A stretch of DNA of 45,917 nucleotides from Escherichia phage 2725-N35, in sequence record MN840485.1. One strand, given 5' to 3'. Position numbers and translations under genes: made by a program. This document shows, piece after piece, positions 1 through 45,917 of the stretch. Each line of letters opens with the position of its first letter. Position 1 is the first letter of the stretch. The notes under the pieces are model-generated. The model had not been told where the DNA came from. It saw only the letters and a program-made list of their open reading frames with translations, and ran no database searches.

Positions 1-983
1 CATCTTTAGCTAGGGCTAACTTCGAAAGAGTAATCTCCATCCATTACATCAATGAGGATGTAACCATCTTCTGTGATGACCAACTCATATTCGTAACCAG
101 TTTTGCGTGATTCGTAGAGAATTTTCCAGTGTAGATAGTAGCCATTTTATTTCTCTCTTTGTGTTTCGTTTCGATGGAGTAACTATACCCCATCTTTTAA
201 AATCGCCTTTAGCAATTCGTGCTATTTTGAAATCATTTCTTTGAATGCTGCAAGAAAACCCTCACGTCCGTAGGCGACTGCCGAGAAACCGCCTGATTCC
301 ATTACACTTTTCAGGAATGCCTTCTGTTCTTCGCTGACTGGACTTGCTTGAGTTTTGCCAGCCCTCTTTAGCTCTATAGCTCCGAAAGGATACTTACCTC
401 GAAGTGATTCAGGAATAAGAAACATACAGTCTGATACGCCTTTTAGAAGCCCCTTAGCCTGGTCTTTTCTTGCTTGACCAATGGTTTTCTTTCCCTCATT
501 CACGCAATGGAAAAATACCATATCTGGGTAGTTATACTTAACCCAATCAGAGCAAAAGATTTGTTCGTCATCCTCTTTAGGGCATGACTTAACCGGACCA
601 GGGTAAAACTCAATGTAATCTTCTTTATCTGTAATCTTCATAATAATTCTCCAAAATTCTTAAACGCTATCACGTCCTTTCCTTTTGCATTCCGGCGATG
701 CGTAACCTGAACTGGCGCACGGAACTTATCTACGTTAGTCATAATCATTCTGGCATTTTTAAGCCTGCCAATTCGCGCCGCTTCCGTGCGATTCTCAATA
801 TGAGCTAAGCAAAAGTTCTTCCAGAGCACACTGCAAACTCGATGGTCTGATTCTGGATTAAAGAACTCCCAAGCGTTAAATCTCTCTCCGTTATGAGCCA
901 TTATATTGTACTTAACTACAATGCCTGTCTGATTCTTACTTAACCCAACTTGAAAATCATAAACACGAAGGTAATCACCACGA
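1..983. repeat. Terminal direct repeat, copy A (matches ~44935..45917); contains the 3' end of the helicase gene, the VRR-NUC gene, one promoter element and the 5' part of a small gene
   Basis: Window start and end are collinear and near-identical; ORF-track proteins at 222..641 and 45156..45575 are identical. Two 2-bp indels between copies: 'gtagaga' at ~115 vs 'gtaga' in copy B, and 'ctttag' at ~5 vs 'ctttgtag' in copy B. Confidence 0.9.
222..641 (-). CDS. VRR-NUC-like (PD-(D/E)XK superfamily) nuclease
   Basis: 139 aa with 'FHCVNEG...', 'GAIELKRAGK' and an E/K-containing core typical of VRR-NUC; start overlaps the helicase stop (ATGA). Confidence 0.6.
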   Translation of the reverse strand: MKITDKEDYIEFYPGPVKSCPKEDDEQIFCSDWVKYNYPDMVFFHCVNEGKKTIGQARKDQAKGLLKGVSDCMFLIPESLRGKYPFGAIELKRAGKTQASPVSEEQKAFLKSVMESGGFSAVAYGREGFLAAFKEMISK

Positions 984-2632
984 CGATACATTTTGCCAGT
1001 CAGGTTAGCATTTGGGTCTTTAAGCATCTCGCCGCATTCCCTGCAAACCTTTGCTGCTATGTCATTGCGAGCGCCACAACCCTTTTTAATTACCGATTTA
1101 GTTTGCGCGTCGGTAATGTCTTCGCAAATTGTGAACTGAAAGAAGTGATCGCACCTAACGCCATCAATCTTATTGCTACAGCGACGAGCGAATGGGGAAT
1201 TTTCATATCCACATTGCGGACACTGACGAACCTCATCGCCACCTTTTCTTGAGGATTTAAACTTCTCAGCCTGAATCTCTTCAATAATTGGGTCAAAGTA
1301 AAGCTCAGCCATATCATCAAGTGCGCCAGCAAAATCCAGCACAAGGTGATCTTCTTTATGAAAACCAGCATCAATATGAGATCTCTTAAGTTTGCGCATC
1401 CCCCTACCAAGAAGCTGAATCATAAGCGTTAGGCTGCCAATCTTGCGTAGTATGACGCTAGTATCCCACAGCGGCTGGTTTACGCCCGTAGTAAGACAAC
1501 CAATCTGGAATATTATTTTGTACTTACCTGTCTGGCAATCAGCTAGAATCTCCCTGCGCTTCCTCTCTCCCGTAGAGTCTGTGATGATGGCGTAAGGGTA
1601 TCCATCTGGTAGTGCCGCAGCAGCCTCATCACAATGGAGTTTGCCAGCGCATGTTACCAATGCAGCGTTACGAGTCTCGAGTATTTTCACAACAAAACCC
1701 ATTATCTTTTGGGTCATTGATTGGTTGTCGTGAATCTTTGCAGCCATTGCATCCATTTCTTTCTTGCTGAAGTCTTTAACGCCATCGCTTCCGTCTGGCG
1801 CAAACTCACTAAGGTCATAACCCAGGTCACCAACTTCACCATAAACAGTAGGAACAACGAAGCCCAAATCAACCAGATAATTTGTTGGCACCTGAATCAC
1901 TGTTTTGCGCCAGAATCCACGGATGTTTGGGTTGCTAACGACGATATGATCGTTGTTACGATACGGGCTGCCAGTAAGACCGAATATACGAAGCTCACGC
2001 CCGTACTTCTCACGACAACGACGTTTCATCTCGGTGATAATTAGCGTGTACTGCGCACGACCAGTACCAAGCAATCCTGTGTTTACGCCATCCTTAAAAA
2101 CCATATCGCCTTTCTTTGTGCTCATTTGCTCAAATGTTTCTTCATTCTCTTCAGCCTCCACGATATCCATGTGATCGACCATGTGACACTCATCTATAGC
2201 GATAACTGCCGGAACATAGTCACCAAGCCCCTTAAACAAGCCGTTGGCTGCCGTACCCTCACTGGCCACTATAGTTGGGTGGTAAACTGATTTGACGTTA
2301 AGGCCAGCGCAATAGACGCTATTACGTATGCCGAAATTACGAAGCTCTTCTGAGTTCTGGCTGATAATCTCTGACTGGCGAGAGAGAACCATATAGGGAA
2401 GCCCAAGCTGCTCCATGCGCTTACCAATCATGGCAAGAATGATTGTCTTACCCGCAGATACTGAAAGGTCTGCGATAAATGGTGCCTCGTACTTGCCAAT
2501 AGCCTTTCCGATTGCATCAAATGTCACGCACTGGAATTCGTAAGGGGTTATCTCTCCAAACTGATAGTCTTTCTGAATCTGTTTGATTCTTTCTTTATCG
2601 AAATTTGCAACCAGCTTCTCGATAGGCAACAT
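638..2632 (-). CDS. SF2 DNA helicase with C-terminal Cys4 zinc ribbon
   Basis: 664 aa; Walker A-like 'SVSAGKT', DExH-like 'IDECH', and C-terminal CPQCG...C..C / CRECG cysteine pairs. Confidence 0.8.
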   Translation of the reverse strand: MLPIEKLVANFDKERIKQIQKDYQFGEITPYEFQCVTFDAIGKAIGKYEAPFIADLSVSAGKTIILAMIGKRMEQLGLPYMVLSRQSEIISQNSEELRNFGIRNSVYCAGLNVKSVYHPTIVASEGTAANGLFKGLGDYVPAVIAIDECHMVDHMDIVEAEENEETFEQMSTKKGDMVFKDGVNTGLLGTGRAQYTLIITEMKRRCREKYGRELRIFGLTGSPYRNNDHIVVSNPNIRGFWRKTVIQVPTNYLVDLGFVVPTVYGEVGDLGYDLSEFAPDGSDGVKDFSKKEMDAMAAKIHDNQSMTQKIMGFVVKILETRNAALVTCAGKLHCDEAAAALPDGYPYAIITDSTGERKRREILADCQTGKYKIIFQIGCLTTGVNQPLWDTSVILRKIGSLTLMIQLLGRGMRKLKRSHIDAGFHKEDHLVLDFAGALDDMAELYFDPIIEEIQAEKFKSSRKGGDEVRQCPQCGYENSPFARRCSNKIDGVRCDHFFQFTICEDITDAQTKSVIKKGCGARNDIAAKVCRECGEMLKDPNANLTGKMYRRGDYLRVYDFQVGLSKNQTGIVVKYNIMAHNGERFNAWEFFNPESDHRVCSVLWKNFCLAHIENRTEAARIGRLKNARMIMTNVDKFRAPVQVTHRRNAKGKDVIAFKNFGELL

Positions 2633-2733: not shown

Positions 2734-3213
2734 ATGAATACAGTCGACAAGCGAACAATTAACGGCAATAACGGAACCATCCGCACCGAAGACAAAAAGC
2801 AACGTAAACGACCTTCAGGCTACTATGTTTTAAAAGATGAAGTAAGAGCCGGGCTACGCGCGCGGCTAGAGATAGTTCTTGATTTCTTCGGCACAAAGGC
2901 GAATATCGCAAAGCAGTTAAAGGTAACACCACAGGCTGTAGAAGAATGGTTTAAGCGCGGTATGATTTCTGCGCGTGGGGCTCAACTTTCTCACAACTAC
3001 TATAAGCGAAATGGAGAAGGTTTTCGCGCTACATTCTGCCGACCAGACCTGCAATTCGACGGCAACGGGAGACCGCTGACACTTCGGTGCAAAAAGCGCC
3101 ATATGCTGCGAGTCGTCACTGAGGCTGAATTAGCCACTAAGCCAGAGTGTCGTTCATGGCGCAAGATAAAATTAGAGAACCAAAAGAAGAAAGAGCAAAA
3201 CAGCACGATTTGA
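2734..3213 (+). CDS. DNA-binding protein with Cro/YdaS-like helix-turn-helix; putative transcriptional regulator
   Basis: 159 aa; 'TKANIAKQLKVTPQAVEEWFKRGMIS' HTH; SD GAGGT upstream of ATG. Confidence 0.55.
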   Translation: MNTVDKRTINGNNGTIRTEDKKQRKRPSGYYVLKDEVRAGLRARLEIVLDFFGTKANIAKQLKVTPQAVEEWFKRGMISARGAQLSHNYYKRNGEGFRATFCRPDLQFDGNGRPLTLRCKKRHMLRVVTEAELATKPECRSWRKIKLENQKKKEQNSTI

Positions 3214-4221: not shown

Positions 4222-4258
4222 TCAAAGATGCTACAATCCACTTTAGCAATTCGTGCTA
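4222..4258 (+). promoter_or_regulatory. Extended -10 promoter (TGcTACAAT) followed by an inverted copy of the P-box upstream motif; candidate operator
   Basis: gaTGCTACAATccacTTTAGCAATTCGTGCTATTTT immediately upstream of the tail fibre gene. Confidence 0.45.
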
Positions 4259-11189: not shown

Positions 11190-14100
11190 TTACCACACTC
11201 CAACTACCACTCTTCCTCCGTTCGGTAAGTTTACAGTGATTCCGTTATTGTTAATCTGAACCGTGTTATTGGTTCCGTTAAAAGCAAAGTTACCATTGTT
11301 AGCGTAAAGATTGCCCCTTACAGTTGTGTTATTGAACTCTGACGCACCACTTTTCAGTATCGCCCATCCCTGAGAGCCTGCTACATAATCATTTGATGAA
11401 ATTATATTACCAATCTTAGCGTTAGTAATTGAGCCATCGCCGATTACTGCGCTTTGGATGATTACGTTTCCGTTCTCGACAACGAAGGGGAGCTGCCACT
11501 GACCGGAACCAGAACCAATGCCGTTACTGATTGCGAATCTGTTTGCGTCAAAGATGAACTGACTGCGAACATTCCCACCAGTACCAACAAGTTCCATACT
11601 CATGCCTGATGAATAAGTCTGTCCATTGTATTTCAGGCCAAGACTAATTCCGTACTGTACACCAGTTGACGTGGCATTAGAGAAAGCATCCAGCTTCTGG
11701 TTTAGAGCTGCCTCGTTATTACCAACCCTTGCGCTCAAAGCCGTGTCGGCTGTCGCTCTTGCCTCTGTCTCTGTGGCTAGCGCTGTTTCAATTGTTGTAA
11801 TCTGACCAACAACCTCATCATCAATCTGCGCTTTAAGCTGCGTAAGAGCCTCTACACGCGCCTGAGTTTCATCAGCTATGAGATTAACAGCCTGAACATA
11901 TTCAGCCTTACGCTTACCGTTCTCCTTGGTCATGCGGCGAACATCGGCATCATTAGCTAATGAATTCTCAAGAATTGACTCTGCCTGATTCTGAATATCC
12001 TGGTTCTTTTGAATCGCATTCTGCTCTAGGTATTTAAAACCATCCGAGCCTTCAATATCAACCTTGATATAATCGTTGATGATGTTGGCGTCGTCAGTAC
12101 TCATTCCTCTTGCGAAGGCAGACCAATCAGACGTATTTCCGATTCTGTCGATCAATCTTGCGCGATACCAAATCACCTTGCCTGGCTGAATTGGCGTGTG
12201 CCAGTACTCATAGGCTGGATAAGGCAGTAACGTCAGTAAGCTTGCGTTATCAGGATTGTAAGTGCCGTCACCATTATCAGGGACCTGCTGAAGTTCAGTG
12301 TAAGCAGTGTCACCAGAACCCTCAGGGAAACCCCACTTAACACGGATGCCAAATACCTCATCTGTTGATGCCGTGATAACAGTAGGTGCCGATGGACGAC
12401 CAATCTTGCCAGTTAGCGATACGGTTACAATGCCAGACCAGGCAGACACGTTTTCAGTATCTGATACGCTGCGAACCCTAACGTCATAGATTCCTGCGTA
12501 AATACCTTCAATATCAACTTCTGTGCTAGCTGTTCTTGGTACGTTAATCCAGTTACCATTTTCTTTCCTCCATTGAACATTATATGTTTTAGCGTATGGC
12601 GCCTTATCCCATCCTATAACCATCGTCTCAACTGACAACCCTTGAACAACCTTACTGTAGCTTGATACGGTCAGGTTTTCTGGTGGCGATAGTCTGTCAG
12701 GCTCAACAATTGAAGTCGGGCGGTCAACAATGTTAACGCCGTAGTCAATCTCATCATACTTGTTCGGGTCATACTCTACTGCGGTAATTGTATACTGGAA
12801 TGAATCCGAACCGTCAGAATCTGCTTTTTGAATCCCGGTCACAACGTATTGCTGAAGAGCAAGATTATCCTTATCGATTGCGAATACAGTGTCAGGCTGA
12901 GCTAAAAAACTGAAAGCAGTGTTAAGGTTGATTGTTCTTCCATCCTCCGAAACGCTGGCAATAGTTCTTGCCTCTGGACTTCCGTCTGGCTTGTTCAGAA
13001 GAATTCTGTCACCAGGCGCTGCGTCAACTTTAAAAGGGGTAAAAACCTGCAACCCCTGAACTGACTCAATACGACCGGAAAGGTTTAACTGATAGTTGCT
13101 AGACCATGCGGCGTCATTGACCGCAATTACCTCGCCAATCATCGGAATCATACCTTCCAACCCTGTAGTGAAGCTGATAGTTTCGCTTCTCAGGTTTGTT
13201 TTCAGGAGCCATCTGCCACGTCTGTTTGCTTCACTTCTGCGAGTGCATCCAATCGCAGTTAAATCTACAGGGTTAAATCCAAAACGACGAGTTGCCTCTA
13301 ATTCAAATACCGGCTCAACATCCTGTTGATAGTTGTTCTCTACATCATCAAACTGGACGTTTGCCGTGGTGTAAAGGCTTTTATCACTGGCAAAGGTTCG
13401 ACTGAACAATCCGTTTACAACGTTATCATTGGTGAAGATGTAAGATGGGTTGCGAGGCTTATCAACCACGATACCAATCTTTTCACCGTCATAGAAAGTC
13501 AGACCACGGAAGATTGAGCAGATATCACGAATTAGCGTGTAGGCCTCAACCTTGTTTTGCACAACCATATCGCAAAGGTAACGCGGCTCTAAACCACCCT
13601 TACCATCCGGAACCATCTGGTCACAGAATTGCGCGGCTTCATACAAGCCCCATTTATCAATCTCTACACCCAACTCTCGCTGGTCAAGCCCATAGCGTCG
13701 GTTTGTCACCAGGTCATAGAGAACCCATGCCGGGTTATTCGACCATGCCATCTTGAATAAGCCATTCCATGTCCCGCTGTAAGTCCTTGTCTCCGTGTCG
13801 TAGTTTGTCGGTACCTGAATTAGCTTCCAACGCTTCTTTATTGAGATTGTCGGGATGCCGTTAGGGAACAAGTCAGAACCAAACTCAACATAGACCAGAG
13901 CCGTAAGCGGGTAGCGGAATTTGGCGTCGATTACTTCCTGATAGGTTGTAATCTGCATACCATTGACCAGCGTACTGCTTGTTGAATCGGGTGTAATCTT
14001 GCGGATTCGAACCAGTGCGCTATCAAATTCAGCCGGAAGGTTCACGCGAATGCTGCGGTCATAACCTGTAGTTGTCTTGCCGTTAGCAACTCCGCGAGTG

Positions 14101-14615
14101 TATTCCTGATATGCTCCACCATTAACAGACAGGTCAATTGCGTACTCACAAGTTGTTCCGTTCAGGTCTCCATTGCTTTCTTGCTTAACCAGTCTAGGCC
14201 AATATAGCTTTACACGAATCGCTGATAGCTGAGTATTGTTAACCGCAATGATGTACGGGGTATCGTTCTTGATTTCTCTGGATGCCTGAATCTCTGAGTT
14301 AGCACCGTCAAGCCCGGCGATATAATCCTGATACTGCGTGCCGGCACGGAACTCAGCGCGAACACCTTCGTAGTTGTAGCTACCATCCTGGTTTTGCACC
14401 GGAACGTCGGCAAGGTATAAATCTTTCATTGAGAAATTGGGGTCAACCTCACCATCAGCAACCGCCAAAAGAACCTTAACCTTGTTTAGTGAAATGAGGT
14501 TATCTTCCTGCTCCACTGGTTGATGCTGCTTCTGGCTACCACCTTTAGCACCATAAATCTTAATATCTTCAGCCATATCACAAAGCCTCATGTTTGTTTT
14601 GATCATTTGTGCCAT
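11190..14615 (-). CDS. Tail tip/central fibre protein, lambda gpJ-like (host specificity protein)
   Basis: 1141 aa; conserved gpJ region 'YPLTALVYVEFGSD...IQVPTNYDTETRTYSGTWNGLFK..AWSNNPAWVLYDL'. Confidence 0.9.
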   Translation of the reverse strand: MAQMIKTNMRLCDMAEDIKIYGAKGGSQKQHQPVEQEDNLISLNKVKVLLAVADGEVDPNFSMKDLYLADVPVQNQDGSYNYEGVRAEFRAGTQYQDYIAGLDGANSEIQASREIKNDTPYIIAVNNTQLSAIRVKLYWPRLVKQESNGDLNGTTCEYAIDLSVNGGAYQEYTRGVANGKTTTGYDRSIRVNLPAEFDSALVRIRKITPDSTSSTLVNGMQITTYQEVIDAKFRYPLTALVYVEFGSDLFPNGIPTISIKKRWKLIQVPTNYDTETRTYSGTWNGLFKMAWSNNPAWVLYDLVTNRRYGLDQRELGVEIDKWGLYEAAQFCDQMVPDGKGGLEPRYLCDMVVQNKVEAYTLIRDICSIFRGLTFYDGEKIGIVVDKPRNPSYIFTNDNVVNGLFSRTFASDKSLYTTANVQFDDVENNYQQDVEPVFELEATRRFGFNPVDLTAIGCTRRSEANRRGRWLLKTNLRSETISFTTGLEGMIPMIGEVIAVNDAAWSSNYQLNLSGRIESVQGLQVFTPFKVDAAPGDRILLNKPDGSPEARTIASVSEDGRTINLNTAFSFLAQPDTVFAIDKDNLALQQYVVTGIQKADSDGSDSFQYTITAVEYDPNKYDEIDYGVNIVDRPTSIVEPDRLSPPENLTVSSYSKVVQGLSVETMVIGWDKAPYAKTYNVQWRKENGNWINVPRTASTEVDIEGIYAGIYDVRVRSVSDTENVSAWSGIVTVSLTGKIGRPSAPTVITASTDEVFGIRVKWGFPEGSGDTAYTELQQVPDNGDGTYNPDNASLLTLLPYPAYEYWHTPIQPGKVIWYRARLIDRIGNTSDWSAFARGMSTDDANIINDYIKVDIEGSDGFKYLEQNAIQKNQDIQNQAESILENSLANDADVRRMTKENGKRKAEYVQAVNLIADETQARVEALTQLKAQIDDEVVGQITTIETALATETEARATADTALSARVGNNEAALNQKLDAFSNATSTGVQYGISLGLKYNGQTYSSGMSMELVGTGGNVRSQFIFDANRFAISNGIGSGSGQWQLPFVVENGNVIIQSAVIGDGSITNAKIGNIISSNDYVAGSQGWAILKSGASEFNNTTVRGNLYANNGNFAFNGTNNTVQINNNGITVNLPNGGRVVVGVW

Positions 14616-31182: not shown

Positions 31183-31689
31183 CTATAACTTACTAATAAC
31201 AGACTCCAGCGCTTCCTTCATGCTATCAACGTCGTTAGCTGTGGAGTTGTTGCTAATGGTAATCTCCTGCGGCTTATCAATCCCTAGCTCTTTACCAACG
31301 ATTGTGGAGTTGATGATGCCTGCAACGCCAAGCTGATACTTCTGCTCGTAAATTACGTTATCAATAAATTCCATCACATCAGAGTATCCAGCCTCTGTAC
31401 GCCAGCGTGCGAATCTATTGATGTTAACACCCATGAAGAGCGCCAGACCTGTTAATGTGAATACTCGAGGCTTGTGCACTAAACTCTCGCTAACCACGCC
31501 CTGGAATGCCGCCGTCTCAATGGCTTTGATTGCCTCATTCTCAGCCCATGAAAAGTATCTCACTGCAAAGTCAAATACCTCCTCTGGAGTGCACTTGCGG
31601 TTGATTGCCACCATAGCAATATCGCCATACTTCTTGTTATAAAGCGCCTTGAAATTTCCATCACCCATCTTTAATGCTGCTTTGCTCAT
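31183..31689 (-). CDS. Terminase small subunit, putative
   Basis: 168 aa directly upstream of HNH/TerL; first gene after a strong promoter. Confidence 0.6.
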   Translation of the reverse strand: MSKAALKMGDGNFKALYNKKYGDIAMVAINRKCTPEEVFDFAVRYFSWAENEAIKAIETAAFQGVVSESLVHKPRVFTLTGLALFMGVNINRFARWRTEAGYSDVMEFIDNVIYEQKYQLGVAGIINSTIVGKELGIDKPQEITISNNSTANDVDSMKEALESVISKL

Positions 31690-41842: not shown

Positions 41843-41944
41843 TGTTTAAGTTAGTAATAGAATGATACAGCAACCCTGCTCGGAAAAGAAGCATAAAAAG
41901 GGGAGCCAAAAGGCCCCCACTTGTAAAGCTATGTTTTAGATGCG

Positions 41945-42120
41945 CTAGTCTGCGATAATAAATTCAACCAGCGAACCATCAATCGGCGCTAAAATCCACG
42001 TCATATCGTCACCGTAAATCTTGTAATATCCATCCCCTTGATACTCTGCATTGTACGGCTGGTTAACTGTAAATGGCAGCGTTTTGGAGTTGTTTTTGGT
42101 GCAATAAATCATTTTAGTCA
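41945..42120 (-). CDS. Hypothetical small protein (~55-58 aa) upstream of the holin
   Basis: ORF MTKMIYCTKNN... following the P-box promoter; coordinates approximate. Confidence 0.3.
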
Positions 42121-42154
42121 TTTTGTGTTTCCTTGTTTAGTTCATCTCGTTTCT

Positions 42155-42215
42155 ATGTGGTAATTATGCCGCATTTCTACGGCATGCGTTAGGCAAAAAG
42201 TGCTATTAACTAAAC
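42155..42215 (-). promoter_or_regulatory. P-box promoter for the lysis cassette
   Basis: TAATAGCACTTTTTGCCTAAC, 22 nt, CATAATTACCACATAGAAACGAG. Confidence 0.55.
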
Positions 42216-43336
42216 ATTTCCGGGCGGCAAGTAAATCGTCCAATCTCACCAAACTCAGGACTATAAATTATCACCGAAGCCTGTCGGTAAGAGCGATAAC
42301 CTCCGTTAGCACTGTACGCATCTTTCGCTCCAAGCTGGCCGTGTGATTCATCAATACCCAGATTTCCTTCCGTAATAGTTTGATGGTGATAGTGGCCTGA
42401 ATGGGTGTAAACATACTCTGATTCACCAAATGCTTTGCGATGGTCACGAGCCAGTGCTGATAGTCGGGTATCAGGCTTTTTGAGTTCGTGCCCATGGCAG
42501 TAACCAAGCAGTGTCTTCCCAAATTGCGTTACGTGAAGCGCAGCGGGGGACGTATCAACATTAACTCGAGGCTCATCCATATAGAAAGCTGCCATTGCAG
42601 CACGAAGCCAAATCATACCTGAGAGATCGTGGTTACCTGGAATAATCTGAACCTCAACCTCGGCGTGCTTATCAAGCATACGGCTAATTGCTCGACGTGT
42701 CGATCGCACTGCTACGTAAACAAGTTTGTGATAACGGCTATCTTGATCAAGAACATGACGACTGGTTGGTGTTACCGCTTCCATTCCGTCAGAGTGAAGG
42801 AAGTCACCCCCAATCAGCAATACAGCTTTCTTGGAGTTGGGGGCCTTTGCAACCGCGTAATCAAAGTAATCATTAAGAACTCTCTCAGCGATTTCAGTAC
42901 TATAGTTCTCACCACACTCAGCATGATGAGCCATTGCTCCAATGTGGAGGTCGAACACGGGGTAAAGGCTTAAAGTATCTTCCCATAAACCAACCCTTAA
43001 AGCTTTAGCTTTCTCACGCGGCAACTCATCAGTTAGGGCCTGAATTGCCTGAAGCATCATCTCTTCTTGCTTCTCCTTGTCGATATCTGATTTAACCCAC
43101 TGTTGCTTAATCTCGCCATCAGCACCAATTAAGCTGGATACGCCTTTAACTGCATAGCCCTGAGGGATTAAGTTGCTTACATCGCGACCATGCCCTTCGC
43201 CTTGTTTAGCTAATTTACTGCGACGCAATTCAACGTTGCGAATGTTCATTCCGTACTTCTCTGCGATTGCCTTGTTGGTCATGCCATTTGCTAACTCTTC
43301 GCGCAATTGTTCGTTGGTGATTTTTGCGGTTGCCAT
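42206..43336 (-). CDS. HTH domain fused to a calcineurin-like metallophosphoesterase
   Basis: N-terminal 'LANGMTNKAIAEKYGMNIRNVELRRSKL' (LuxR/sigma-r4-like HTH); phosphoesterase motifs DLH, GGDFLH, GNHD, HGH, HSGHYHH. Confidence 0.7.
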   Translation of the reverse strand: MATAKITNEQLREELANGMTNKAIAEKYGMNIRNVELRRSKLAKQGEGHGRDVSNLIPQGYAVKGVSSLIGADGEIKQQWVKSDIDKEKQEEMMLQAIQALTDELPREKAKALRVGLWEDTLSLYPVFDLHIGAMAHHAECGENYSTEIAERVLNDYFDYAVAKAPNSKKAVLLIGGDFLHSDGMEAVTPTSRHVLDQDSRYHKLVYVAVRSTRRAISRMLDKHAEVEVQIIPGNHDLSGMIWLRAAMAAFYMDEPRVNVDTSPAALHVTQFGKTLLGYCHGHELKKPDTRLSALARDHRKAFGESEYVYTHSGHYHHQTITEGNLGIDESHGQLGAKDAYSANGGYRSYRQASVIIYSPEFGEIGRFTCRPEMFS

Positions 43337-44882: not shown

Positions 44883-45079
44883 TCTGATACCTCATCAAAT
44901 TTTTCGCCAAATTCGTTTTTAACAGTTTCTAAATCATCTTTGTAGCTAGGGCTAACTTCGAAAGAGTAATCTCCATCCATTACATCAATGAGGATGTAAC
45001 CATCTTCTGTGATGACCAACTCATATTCGTAACCAGTTTTGCGTGATTCGTAGAATTTTCCAGTGTAGATAGTAGCCAT
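44879..45079 (-). CDS. Hypothetical small protein
   Basis: Start set at ATG (MATIYTGKFY...) 30 nt downstream of the P-box -10; track ORF extends to 45127. Confidence 0.45.
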   Translation of the reverse strand: MATIYTGKFYESRKTGYEYELVITEDGYILIDVMDGDYSFEVSPSYKDDLETVKNEFGEKFDEVSE

Positions 45080-45116
45080 TTTATTTCTCTCTTTGTGTTT
45101 CGTTTCGATGGAGTAA

Positions 45117-45162
45117 CTATACCCCATCTTTTAAAATCGCCTTTAGCAATTCGTGCTATTTT
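45117..45162 (-). promoter_or_regulatory. P-box promoter (archetype; duplicated at ~182..228)
   Basis: AAAATAGCACGAATTGCTAAAGG, 22 nt, TATAGTTACTCCATCGAAACGAAAC; VRR-NUC stop TAG lies inside the box. Confidence 0.6.
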
Positions 45163-45575
45163 GAAATCATTTCTTTGAATGCTGCAAGAAAACCCTCACG
45201 TCCGTAGGCGACTGCCGAGAAACCGCCTGATTCCATTACACTTTTCAGGAATGCCTTCTGTTCTTCGCTGACTGGACTTGCTTGAGTTTTGCCAGCCCTC
45301 TTTAGCTCTATAGCTCCGAAAGGATACTTACCTCGAAGTGATTCAGGAATAAGAAACATACAGTCTGATACGCCTTTTAGAAGCCCCTTAGCCTGGTCTT
45401 TTCTTGCTTGACCAATGGTTTTCTTTCCCTCATTCACGCAATGGAAAAATACCATATCTGGGTAGTTATACTTAACCCAATCAGAGCAAAAGATTTGTTC
45501 GTCATCCTCTTTAGGGCATGACTTAACCGGACCAGGGTAAAACTCAATGTAATCTTCTTTATCTGTAATCTTCAT
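45156..45575 (-). CDS. VRR-NUC-like nuclease (duplicate of 222..641 within the terminal repeat)
   Basis: Identical 139-aa translation. Confidence 0.6.
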   Translation of the reverse strand: MKITDKEDYIEFYPGPVKSCPKEDDEQIFCSDWVKYNYPDMVFFHCVNEGKKTIGQARKDQAKGLLKGVSDCMFLIPESLRGKYPFGAIELKRAGKTQASPVSEEQKAFLKSVMESGGFSAVAYGREGFLAAFKEMISK

Positions 45576-45917
45576 AATAATTCTCCAAAATTCTTAAACG
45601 CTATCACGTCCTTTCCTTTTGCATTCCGGCGATGCGTAACCTGAACTGGCGCACGGAACTTATCTACGTTAGTCATAATCATTCTGGCATTTTTAAGCCT
45701 GCCAATTCGCGCCGCTTCCGTGCGATTCTCAATATGAGCTAAGCAAAAGTTCTTCCAGAGCACACTGCAAACTCGATGGTCTGATTCTGGATTAAAGAAC
45801 TCCCAAGCGTTAAATCTCTCTCCGTTATGAGCCATTATATTGTACTTAACTACAATGCCTGTCTGATTCTTACTTAACCCAACTTGAAAATCATAAACAC
45901 GAAGGTAATCACCACGA
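45572..45917 (-). CDS. Helicase gene, 3' portion (duplicate, truncated by the window end)
   Basis: Translation identical to the C-terminus of the 638..2632 product. Confidence 0.6.
   Translation of the reverse strand, partial: RGDYLRVYDFQVGLSKNQTGIVVKYNIMAHNGERFNAWEFFNPESDHRVCSVLWKNFCLAHIENRTEAARIGRLKNARMIMTNVDKFRAPVQVTHRRNAKGKDVIAFKNFGELL

Follow-up and report, generated by a model that had tools for sequence, protein, structure and literature searches.

The sequence of Escherichia phage 2725-N35 (record MN840485.1; the whole stretch of 45,917 nucleotides is referred to below as the window) represents the genome of a T1-like siphophage of the family Drexlerviridae, subfamily Braunvirinae, and its gene order agrees with those of phages JeanPiccard and EC3a. 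Positions 1–983 of the window repeat positions 44935–45917, save for two 2-bp indels, so that the genome is about 44.9 kb long, with an end overlap. The minus strand of the window contains an open reading frame for a helix-turn-helix domain fused to a metallophosphoesterase (HTH-MPE; Table 1). The original prediction had reported the same 376-aa product at the same coordinates, to which the strand can now be added. The ORF is real and correctly read; the opposite, plus-strand translation of this interval contains stops throughout. A tblastn search started with the protein identifies bas02_0047 from Escherichia phage JeanPiccard (Bas02) with 99.5% identity, and the identity to the counterparts in JeanPiccard and Veterinaerplatzvirus T145P1 is 99.5–99.7%; gp16 of phage T1 is 63% identical over the full length. 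By these alignments, HTH-MPE is an ortholog of T1 gp16 and of bas02_0047, and the gene in this genome is an ordinary, near-identical copy of sequences deposited earlier. The protein matches PHROG 704 (“DNA repair exonuclease”) with E=2.8e-149, residues 4–375 covering positions 2–389 of the 390 in the profile, and on the strength of this match is a full-length member of that family.

The PHROG 704 label is an annotation transfer. Between them, the labels found in databases (“DNA repair exonuclease”, “phosphoesterase”, “sigma70_r4_2 domain-containing protein”) already cover both halves of the protein. A literature search for functional studies of the PHROG 704/T1 gp16 family identified no experiment on any member; it returned only genome reports and a single comparative paper, in which the annotation name appears but the enzyme itself is not the subject (PMC13164509). 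The HTH-MPE gene is not mentioned in a Tn-seq preprint or in the PUA-Cal-HAD and daunorubicin papers.

In the minus-strand order, the genes for a SNF2-like helicase and a VRR-NUC protein come first, followed by a unit that consists of about ten small ORFs and the HTH-MPE gene. A box-type promoter is predicted upstream of this unit, with the box TAGCACGAATTGCTA at 45144–45158, a 22-nt spacer and the –10 element TATAGT at 45116–45121; through the terminal redundancy, it is duplicated at 182–224. Another box-type promoter (box TAGCACTTTTTGCCT, 22-nt spacer, –10 element CATAAT) begins one base past the HTH-MPE stop codon. Judging from its location, this second promoter is suitably placed for transcription of the DUF7244/SH3 gene and perhaps of the lysis genes as well. 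The DUF7244 gene has HTH-MPE on one side and the holin gene on the other, with an intrinsic terminator-like hairpin in the gap between the DUF7244 and holin genes, at a place that matches an annotated terminator in the EC3a record; past the terminator, the minus strand encodes holin, endolysin and spanin. The T1 locus shows the same arrangement, with gp16 in the place of HTH-MPE and the box TAAATAGCAC at 41953, at the end of gene 16.

Table 1. Features of the HTH-MPE gene, its product and the surrounding locus (positions in the window)
Feature	Position	Strand	Details and basis
HTH-MPE coding sequence	42206..43336	–	376 aa plus TAA stop; ORF list, tblastn, PHROG 704
GerE/LuxR / sigma-70 region-4-type HTH (residues 5–45)	43202..43324	–	Model helices, Pfam matches of relatives, family profile
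Flexible linker (residues 46–60)	43157..43201	–	No secondary structure; model
Family-specific beta-hairpin and helix (residues 61–105)	43022..43156	–	KG.S..(G)..QWVK; model, conservation
MPE catalytic domain (residues 118–376)	42209..42985	–	Motifs and model
MPE motif I	42938–42958	–	VFDLHIG; DLH 129–131
MPE motif II	42788–42811	–	GGDFLHSD; GDFLH 177–181
MPE motif III	42623–42640	–	PGNHDL; GNHD 234–237
MPE motif IV	42485–42499	–	CHGHE; HGH 281–283
MPE motif V	42383–42400	–	SGHYHH; GHYH 314–317
SNF2-like helicase	2632..638	–	First in the minus-strand order leading to HTH-MPE
VRR-NUC	641..222, duplicated at 45575..45156	–	After the SNF2-like helicase
Box-type promoter upstream of the small-ORF/HTH-MPE unit	45116..45158	–	Predicted from sequence only
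Box-type promoter one base past the HTH-MPE stop codon	42163..42205	–	Box TAGCACTTTTTGCCT, 22-nt spacer, –10 CATAAT
DUF7244 (standalone SH3-like) gene, 58 aa	41945..42121	–	Pfam DUF7244, E=1.3e-29; between HTH-MPE and holin
Intrinsic terminator-like hairpin and T-run	41901..41918	–	GGGGGCCTTTTGGCTCCCCTTTTT; consensus scan; gap between DUF7244 gene and holin

The C-terminal part of the protein contains all five signature motifs of the MPE superfamily, whose residues bind metal ions and carry out catalysis, and the characteristic beta-alpha-beta-alpha-beta sandwich. Pfam Metallophos (PF00149) yields 20.9 bits against a gathering cutoff of 21.5 (E=5.2e-4), and only 18 of 68 relatives match it at E<0.01; this subfamily is divergent and scores below the threshold, so that its membership in the PF00149 superfamily rests on the motifs and the fold. 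Across these relatives (68 family members at 30–40% identity), D129, H131, D178, N235, H236, H281, G282, G314 and H317 are invariant, and H181, D237 and H315 are conserved in at least 90%. The invariance of the motif residues indicates that the enzyme activity of the MPE domain is under selection.

An AlphaFold2 model built from the 68-sequence alignment has a pLDDT of 92.7 and a pTM of 0.83. A Foldseek search of all PDB chains up to April 2026 identifies DNA-bound Mre11 and PolD DP1 as the best matches, with E about 1e-7 and TM about 0.4, values which imply that no close homolog has a solved structure. The solved folds nearest to the MPE core are those of the PolD DP1 proofreading exonuclease, SbcD and Mre11, whereas Ser/Thr protein phosphatases obtain far lower structural scores. 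At the sequence level, a search of PDB with the single protein gives no match at E≤10, and the catalytic part of the family profile retrieves Nuclease MPE, SbcD and Mre11, all weakly. The NCBIfam matches fall into two themes, namely PdeM and, weakly, the HTH region of FixJ/TtrR/UhpA. BFVD contains many phage relatives, several of which are automatically annotated as “DNA polymerase II small subunit”. With respect to the C-terminal capping domain and homodimer interface of Mre11/SbcD, the model includes about 60 residues of beta-structure after motif V, and the alignment with Mre11/SbcD covers the core only. The MPE fold is not a sharp criterion for distinguishing nucleases from other phosphodiesterases.

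The N-terminal domain consists of three helices in the model (residues 8–16, 21–28 and 32–44), with IRNVELRRSKLAK as the putative recognition helix. For the protein itself, the Pfam matches are below the threshold (GerE, E=0.044; Sigma70_r4_2, E=0.22). A scan of the N-termini of the 68 relatives detects HTH_8 in 12, HTH_1 in 11, Sigma70_r4_2 in six and GerE in three, the best of these reaching 1.5e-9 for Sigma70_r4_2 and 2.4e-8 for GerE, and the N-terminal part of the family profile weakly matches GerE (1fse, E=0.048), RhlR, DesR and ComA among PDB sequences. The segment is conserved across the 68 relatives, with the pattern helix, G-[ST]xxxAAxxLG[IV]xxx[TN]V, helix (the fuller signature is G-x-[ST]-x(3)-[IA]A-x(2)-[LY]G-[IVM]-x(3)-[TN]-V). 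In the relatives, the domain is clearly GerE/sigma-region-4-like as judged by these profile matches. The original prediction of a LuxR/sigma-region-4-like HTH at the N-terminus is consistent with the model helices and with the Pfam matches of the relatives, and its assignment of the remainder to a metallophosphoesterase with a complete calcineurin-like motif set agrees with the motifs found in the translation, the AlphaFold2 fold and the structural neighbors; both domain calls hold. The linker that follows the HTH is the least confident part of the model (pLDDT 68–71 versus more than 87 elsewhere). It leads to a family-specific element that consists of two strands (61–70 and 76–85) and a helix (87–103), in which G74 and W80 are conserved in at least 90% of the 68 relatives. 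This element is retained in homologs that lack the HTH; the homolog from a Campylobacter phage begins there.

The family is broadly distributed. At E≤1e-3, an exhaustive profile search, prophages included, yields 5503 cluster representatives, of which 1400 remain at E≤1e-30; most of the representatives are 375–400 aa in length and are matched over nearly the full length. A tblastn search finds the protein in 2049 phage records, which include Drexlerviridae, Jerseyvirus, Kagunavirus, Dhillonvirus, one member each of Casjensviridae and Schitoviridae, and Campylobacter and Vibrio phages; a scan of IMG/VR detects only close T1-like, Kagunavirus and Jerseyvirus relatives. PHROG 704 is among the more widespread conserved gene families of virulent siphophages and is persistent in T1-like therapeutic and laboratory-contaminant phages. 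The homolog in phage phiJLA23 appears shortened, but its record has ambiguous bases exactly at the break point, and it was rejected as a sign that the MPE domain is dispensable.

Analysis of the genomic contexts reveals diverse settings. In Jerseyvirus, the gene belongs to a small leftward island within the tail module, together with genes for an HNH endonuclease and an antirepressor; in Dhillonvirus, it is located past the lysis genes, directly ahead of the terminase genes, and in RcPeripeteia (Casjensviridae), it is likewise found past the lysis genes. The homolog in Vibrio phage K122 has SSB/endonuclease genes on one side and head genes on the other, that in a Ruegeria N4-like phage lies in a group of nucleotide-metabolism genes, and the HTH-less form in Campylobacter myoviruses adjoins genes for a ligase and a Holliday-junction resolvase. 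A scan of bacterial genomes with the single protein identifies 11 loci, three of which have annotated neighbors, and all three are prophage-like: in Luteimonas and Pantoea, the homolog is downstream of a replication helicase and is followed by the terminase large subunit or a DNA methyltransferase, and in Sphingomonas, it is within a tail module. A Rad50/SbcC-like ATPase gene was not found next to the homolog in any genome or locus examined.

These observations are best compatible with the hypothesis that HTH-MPE is a DNA-tethered, Mn-dependent nuclease that operates without a Rad50/SbcC partner. The probability of this reading is put at about 0.5 because the fold is not sharply nuclease-specific and the neighborhoods vary. 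Of the roles listed in the original prediction, the Mre11/SbcD-like nuclease is accordingly the favored one. The protein comprises two modules, an intact binuclear, nuclease-type MPE and a GerE/sigma-region-4-type HTH, joined by a flexible linker of about 15 residues. Under this hypothesis, the HTH would hold the protein, perhaps in dimeric form, on duplex DNA and would stand in for the DNA-binding role of the Rad50/SbcC ATPase partner; the MPE domain would hydrolyze DNA phosphodiester bonds in a Mn2+/Mg2+-dependent manner. In a T1-type life cycle, such an enzyme would belong to the DNA metabolism of mid infection, where its candidate jobs are the processing of ends, of hairpins or of branched intermediates in replication and recombination ahead of headful packaging or, alternatively, help in the breakdown of host DNA. 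Classical T1 genetics has defined a “gene 2.5” that is needed for host DNA degradation, and its possible correspondence to gp16 is a lead only. Thousands of annotations would be either corrected or justified once the role of such an Mre11/DP1-like enzyme, Rad50-less and HTH-tethered, is known, and the nuclease responsible for the breakdown of host DNA or the processing of concatemers in T1-type phages could be identified as well.

Several other functions have to be weighed against that of a tethered nuclease. The protein could be a phosphodiesterase or phosphatase that acts on targets other than the DNA backbone, with the HTH used for localization or autoregulation. It might then be an end-healing enzyme, i.e., a partner of the phage polynucleotide kinase (PNK) with 2',3'-cyclic phosphodiesterase or 3'-phosphatase activity, or a degrader of nucleotide second messengers with a counter-defense function. 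Such activities appear unlikely: the top structural and sequence neighbors are nucleases, it is not obvious what a small-molecule enzyme would gain from a conserved DNA-binding HTH, and adjacency to the PNK gene is not conserved, being absent in the window, T1, Jerseyvirus and Dhillonvirus. A search with the PADLOC defense and counter-defense models gives no family at E≤1, and the role of a defense or counter-defense protein was rejected on this account; the NCBIfam “anti-phage phosphoesterase” model yields 12.6 bits against a cutoff of 420.

It is decidedly unlikely that HTH-MPE plays a regulatory or takeover role as a site-directed enzyme, in place of that of a housekeeping repair nuclease. 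In that case, a specific sequence of the phage or the host, or RNA polymerase, might be the target of the HTH, and the nuclease might be directed in this way to start the destruction of the host chromosome or to process a defined site in the phage DNA. DNA cleavage would then be coupled to the transition to lysis and packaging, a coupling that could explain why unrelated phage groups keep this gene next to their lysis or packaging modules. Were this reading correct, partner-less MPE nucleases guided by an HTH would constitute a class that is new and very widespread, its sequence clusters numbering more than 5000.

The original prediction also named HTH-MPE as a candidate binder of the box found upstream of the promoters. 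The core of this box, the 15-bp dyad TAGCA-N5-TGCTA (fuller form aAATAGCAC(G/T)(A/T)(A/T)TTGCTAAA), is present in nine copies in the window compared with 0.09 expected by chance. It nearly always lies exactly 22 nt ahead of a good –10 element (TATAGT, CATAAT or TATAAT), which places the dyad center near –42, where LuxR-type and other class II activators classically bind; no –35 element occurs at normal spacing in these promoters. From this layout, the box promoters look like an activator-dependent class. The box was detected in all four Drexlerviridae sequences examined, T1, phiJLA23 and SmellyBerry among them, and these sequences include Rogunavirus and Webervirus loci; in T1, it heads many transcription units.

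HTH-MPE could be the transcription factor for this box, a class-II-type activator or an autoregulator, with the MPE activity coupled or secondary. Compatible with this possibility are the reality, dyad symmetry and –42 position of the box, the absence of a –35 element, the LuxR/GerE type of the HTH, its weak match to a “late transcriptional activator” PHROG (E=0.05), and the location of one box next to the HTH-MPE stop codon and of another at the head of its transcription unit. However, the fusion is encoded also in Jerseyvirus SeF1 and Dhillonvirus EP23, with recognition helices RRNVQLRSARLAK and LRNVYMRKARLSK, respectively, that are about as similar to IRNVELRRSKLAK from the window as is the helix of T1, and the complete genomes of these two phages contain no box, even in the relaxed form AGCA-N5-TGCT. 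Jerseyvirus has a different dyad, TAATAG-N4-CTATTA, which, in the one copy checked, occupies an operator-like position within the spacer of a sigma-70-like promoter. The phyletic range of the box is matched instead by a Cro-like regulator (2734..3213 in the window), which is found in 824 records, mainly of T1-like phages (Drexlerviridae). Its gene is divergent from a box promoter located beside its start codon (about 2705–2719 in the window; 36445 in T1), the usual arrangement of a regulator and its operator, and it appears to be a better candidate for the box-binding protein than HTH-MPE. Furthermore, the HTH-MPE gene itself is behind a box promoter, so that its product cannot be the first activator, and the invariance of the catalytic residues points to enzyme activity as the selected function. 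Within Drexlerviridae, a comparison of changes in the recognition helix with changes in the box was uninformative: the box is constant between T1 and the window, and HTH-MPE and the Cro-like regulator have both diverged. Because of the absence of the box from SeF1 and EP23 and the fit of the Cro-like regulator, binding of the box by HTH-MPE is rated very unlikely and this part of the original prediction is not supported. The judgment is based on two outgroup genomes in addition to the four Drexlerviridae sequences and does not amount to proof.

There is at best a slim chance, by analogy with phage T5 A1, that HTH-MPE is an RNA polymerase (RNAP)-associated host-takeover factor, which would use its sigma-region-4-like domain to dock on RNAP or promoter DNA and its MPE domain to degrade host DNA. 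The relatives match Sigma70_r4_2 at 1.5e-9, as indicated above, and A1 contains all MPE motifs and shares with the HTH-MPE family the extended motif III, NHD-x-[AS]-x-S-x-WL. According to its annotation, A1 is needed for host DNA degradation and for the shut-off of host and pre-early gene expression, and it is described as associating with RNAP (PMC13250531). Nevertheless, comparisons by hhalign, hmmsearch and PHROG do not detect specific homology: the hhalign probability is 22% over 20 columns, with only motif III aligned, hmmsearch gives 2.4 bits, and A1 matches PHROG 1745 only and not PHROG 704, so that A1 was rejected as a specific relative. Also, the HTH-MPE gene is outside the first-injected early region.

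Finally, the protein phosphatase named in the original prediction, a lambda-PP-like enzyme acting on Ser/Thr/Tyr residues of host or phage proteins, is extremely improbable: lambda phosphatase belongs to the same superfamily (Pfam Metallophos), but phosphatases score far lower than nucleases, and HTH-MPE shows neither the GDxVDRG and GNHE signatures of the PPP family (lambda PP type) nor the PPP-like fold details.

Among the known systems, T1 gp16 and the rest of PHROG 704 show no meaningful difference from HTH-MPE of the window, and T1 gp16 occupies the same spot ahead of the DUF7244/SH3 gene and the holin-endolysin-spanin cassette. With Mre11/SbcD, HTH-MPE shares the nuclease-type MPE core; however, only about 188 core residues align, at 12–18% identity and with non-significant sequence E-values, and an N-terminal HTH takes the place of the partner-mediated DNA clamp. 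No gene for a Rad50/SbcC SMC-like ATPase is present among the ORFs of the window or in the annotated JeanPiccard and T1 genomes. HTH-MPE is not a member of the Mre11/SbcD family because it lacks this partner and a significant sequence match. PolD DP1 and the eukaryotic B-subunits are 10–12% identical to HTH-MPE. DP1 contains a full OB fold, whereas HTH-MPE has only the two-strand hairpin (61–85) and the helix (87–103) before the MPE core, and no gene for DP2, a B-family polymerase or any other DNA polymerase is annotated in JeanPiccard or T1; without the OB fold and the polymerase partner, HTH-MPE does not belong to the DP1 family either.

The HTH resembles those of GerE/LuxR/NarL and sigma-70 region 4 in its three helices and typical sequence pattern, but differs from GerE/LuxR in being N-terminal instead of C-terminal, in lacking, in the model, the fourth (dimerization) helix of the GerE type, and in the fusion of the predicted DNA-binding domain to an enzyme and not to a receiver or ligand domain. 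Nuclease MPE (PdeM) from Pseudomonas putida, a ligase-associated DNA-damage-response endonuclease, is about 200 aa in length and has no HTH; the PdeM family score of HTH-MPE is 19.6 bits against a cutoff of 150. T5 A1 and Gp48 of mycobacteriophage A10ZJ24 (PMC12287305) are similarly phage-encoded proteins with MPE motifs that are linked to host DNA degradation; in Gp48, motif I is at residue 10, which leaves no room for an N-terminal HTH. These two proteins set a precedent for phage MPEs that attack host DNA. There is about an even chance that HTH-MPE works like a partner-less nuclease of the Mre11/SbcD/DP1 type that carries a DNA-binding module of its own.

Promoters of one family in the window are defined by the dyad box TAGCA-N5-TGCTA (full form aAATAGCACGAATTGCTAAA), which is found 9 times compared to a chance expectation of 0.09. 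The distance from the box to a good -10 element is exactly 22 nt, except at the copy at 4258, where a -10 is missing and a terminator lies downstream. Because the box is located 22 nt upstream of the -10, the dyad centre falls near -42; there is no -35 element at normal spacing. The box is also present in the phages T1, phiJLA23 and SmellyBerry and is absent from one Jerseyvirus and one Dhillonvirus. The original prediction named the product of the HTH-MPE gene (an N-terminal helix-turn-helix followed by a metallophosphoesterase domain) as a candidate binder of the box; we consider the Cro-like regulator encoded at 2734..3213 the likely binder. The gene for this regulator occurs mainly in T1-like phages, and its start codon adjoins a variant of the box (near 2719).

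Coordinates of the boxes, repeats and neighbouring genes in the window and in related genomes
Feature	Genome	Position	Strand	Remark
Box starts	window	45158 (= 224), 42205, 35370, 34996, 34018, 32906, 29040, 21167, 4258	-	
Box variant	window	near 2719	-	
Boxes	window	37850, 38650	+	
Second element, examples	window	downstream of 32906, 29040, 35370	-	(C/A)(A/T)GGATGG(C)
Second element, examples	phiJLA23	1279, 2161, 2847		(C/A)(A/T)GGATGG(C)
DUF7244 gene (standalone SH3-like)	window	41945..42121	-	58 aa; own box promoter; just before holin gene
Strong terminator	window	41901..41918	-	after DUF7244 gene, before holin
HNH homing-endonuclease gene	T1	42028-42510		directly downstream of HTH-MPE gene
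HNH homing-endonuclease gene	Jerseyvirus SeF1	13755-14225		directly downstream of HTH-MPE gene
HNH homing-endonuclease gene	Vibrio phage K122	5448-6014		one gene further downstream of HTH-MPE gene
TAATAG-N4-CTATTA	Jerseyvirus SeF1	15630, 27892, 31507, 36952, 37816		
TGCAACCAAT	Dhillonvirus EP23	6461, 22005, 26578, 26595, 40072 + others		

Several box promoters contain in their spacer a second semi-conserved element directly upstream of the -10, often within a short inverted repeat (GCCA-CGGA-TGGC, or ATGCCG-N8-CGGCAT at 42205). [quoted passage not shown] Between the terminator that follows its gene and the holin start, neither a box nor an evident strong sigma-70 promoter was seen.

HNH endonuclease genes are located near the HTH-MPE gene in three unrelated phages, T1, SeF1 and K122, and these positions fit the idea that mobile endonucleases use the HTH-MPE gene as a conserved target region. 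Shortened members of the HTH-MPE family also exist. The homolog of Enterobacteria phage phiJLA23 (3001-3333) consists of the first ~100 aa only, i.e., the HTH and a hairpin, with the MPE domain absent, and the record contains ambiguous bases exactly at the break point. The truncation could be natural, leaving an HTH-only remnant, or could stem from an assembly defect. BFVD also contains short fragments of this family, and separate PHROGs represent the N-terminal (20703) and the C-terminal (20762) parts.

Positions 1-983 of the window repeat the sequence of 44935-45917, with two indels of 2 bp as the only differences, one near positions 6/7 and the other near 116/117. This end repeat represents an overlap left by the assembly or the terminal redundancy of a genome of ~44.9 kb. 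It yields two copies of the VRR-NUC gene (222..641 = 45156..45575) and a spurious 87-aa ORF (45572..45835), which corresponds to the 3' end of the gene for the helicase.

Two other phages that encode HTH-MPE proteins have repeats of their own. Salmonella phage SeF1 possesses five copies of the dyad TAATAG-N4-CTATTA, one of which is located in the divergent region heading the HTH-MPE operon; the copy at 31507, the one whose flanks were checked, lies inside a sigma-70-like promoter spacer, an operator-like position. In Shigella phage EP23, the repeat is a different 10-mer, TGCAACCAAT, which is present in 9 copies and may represent this phage's own promoter or operator family.
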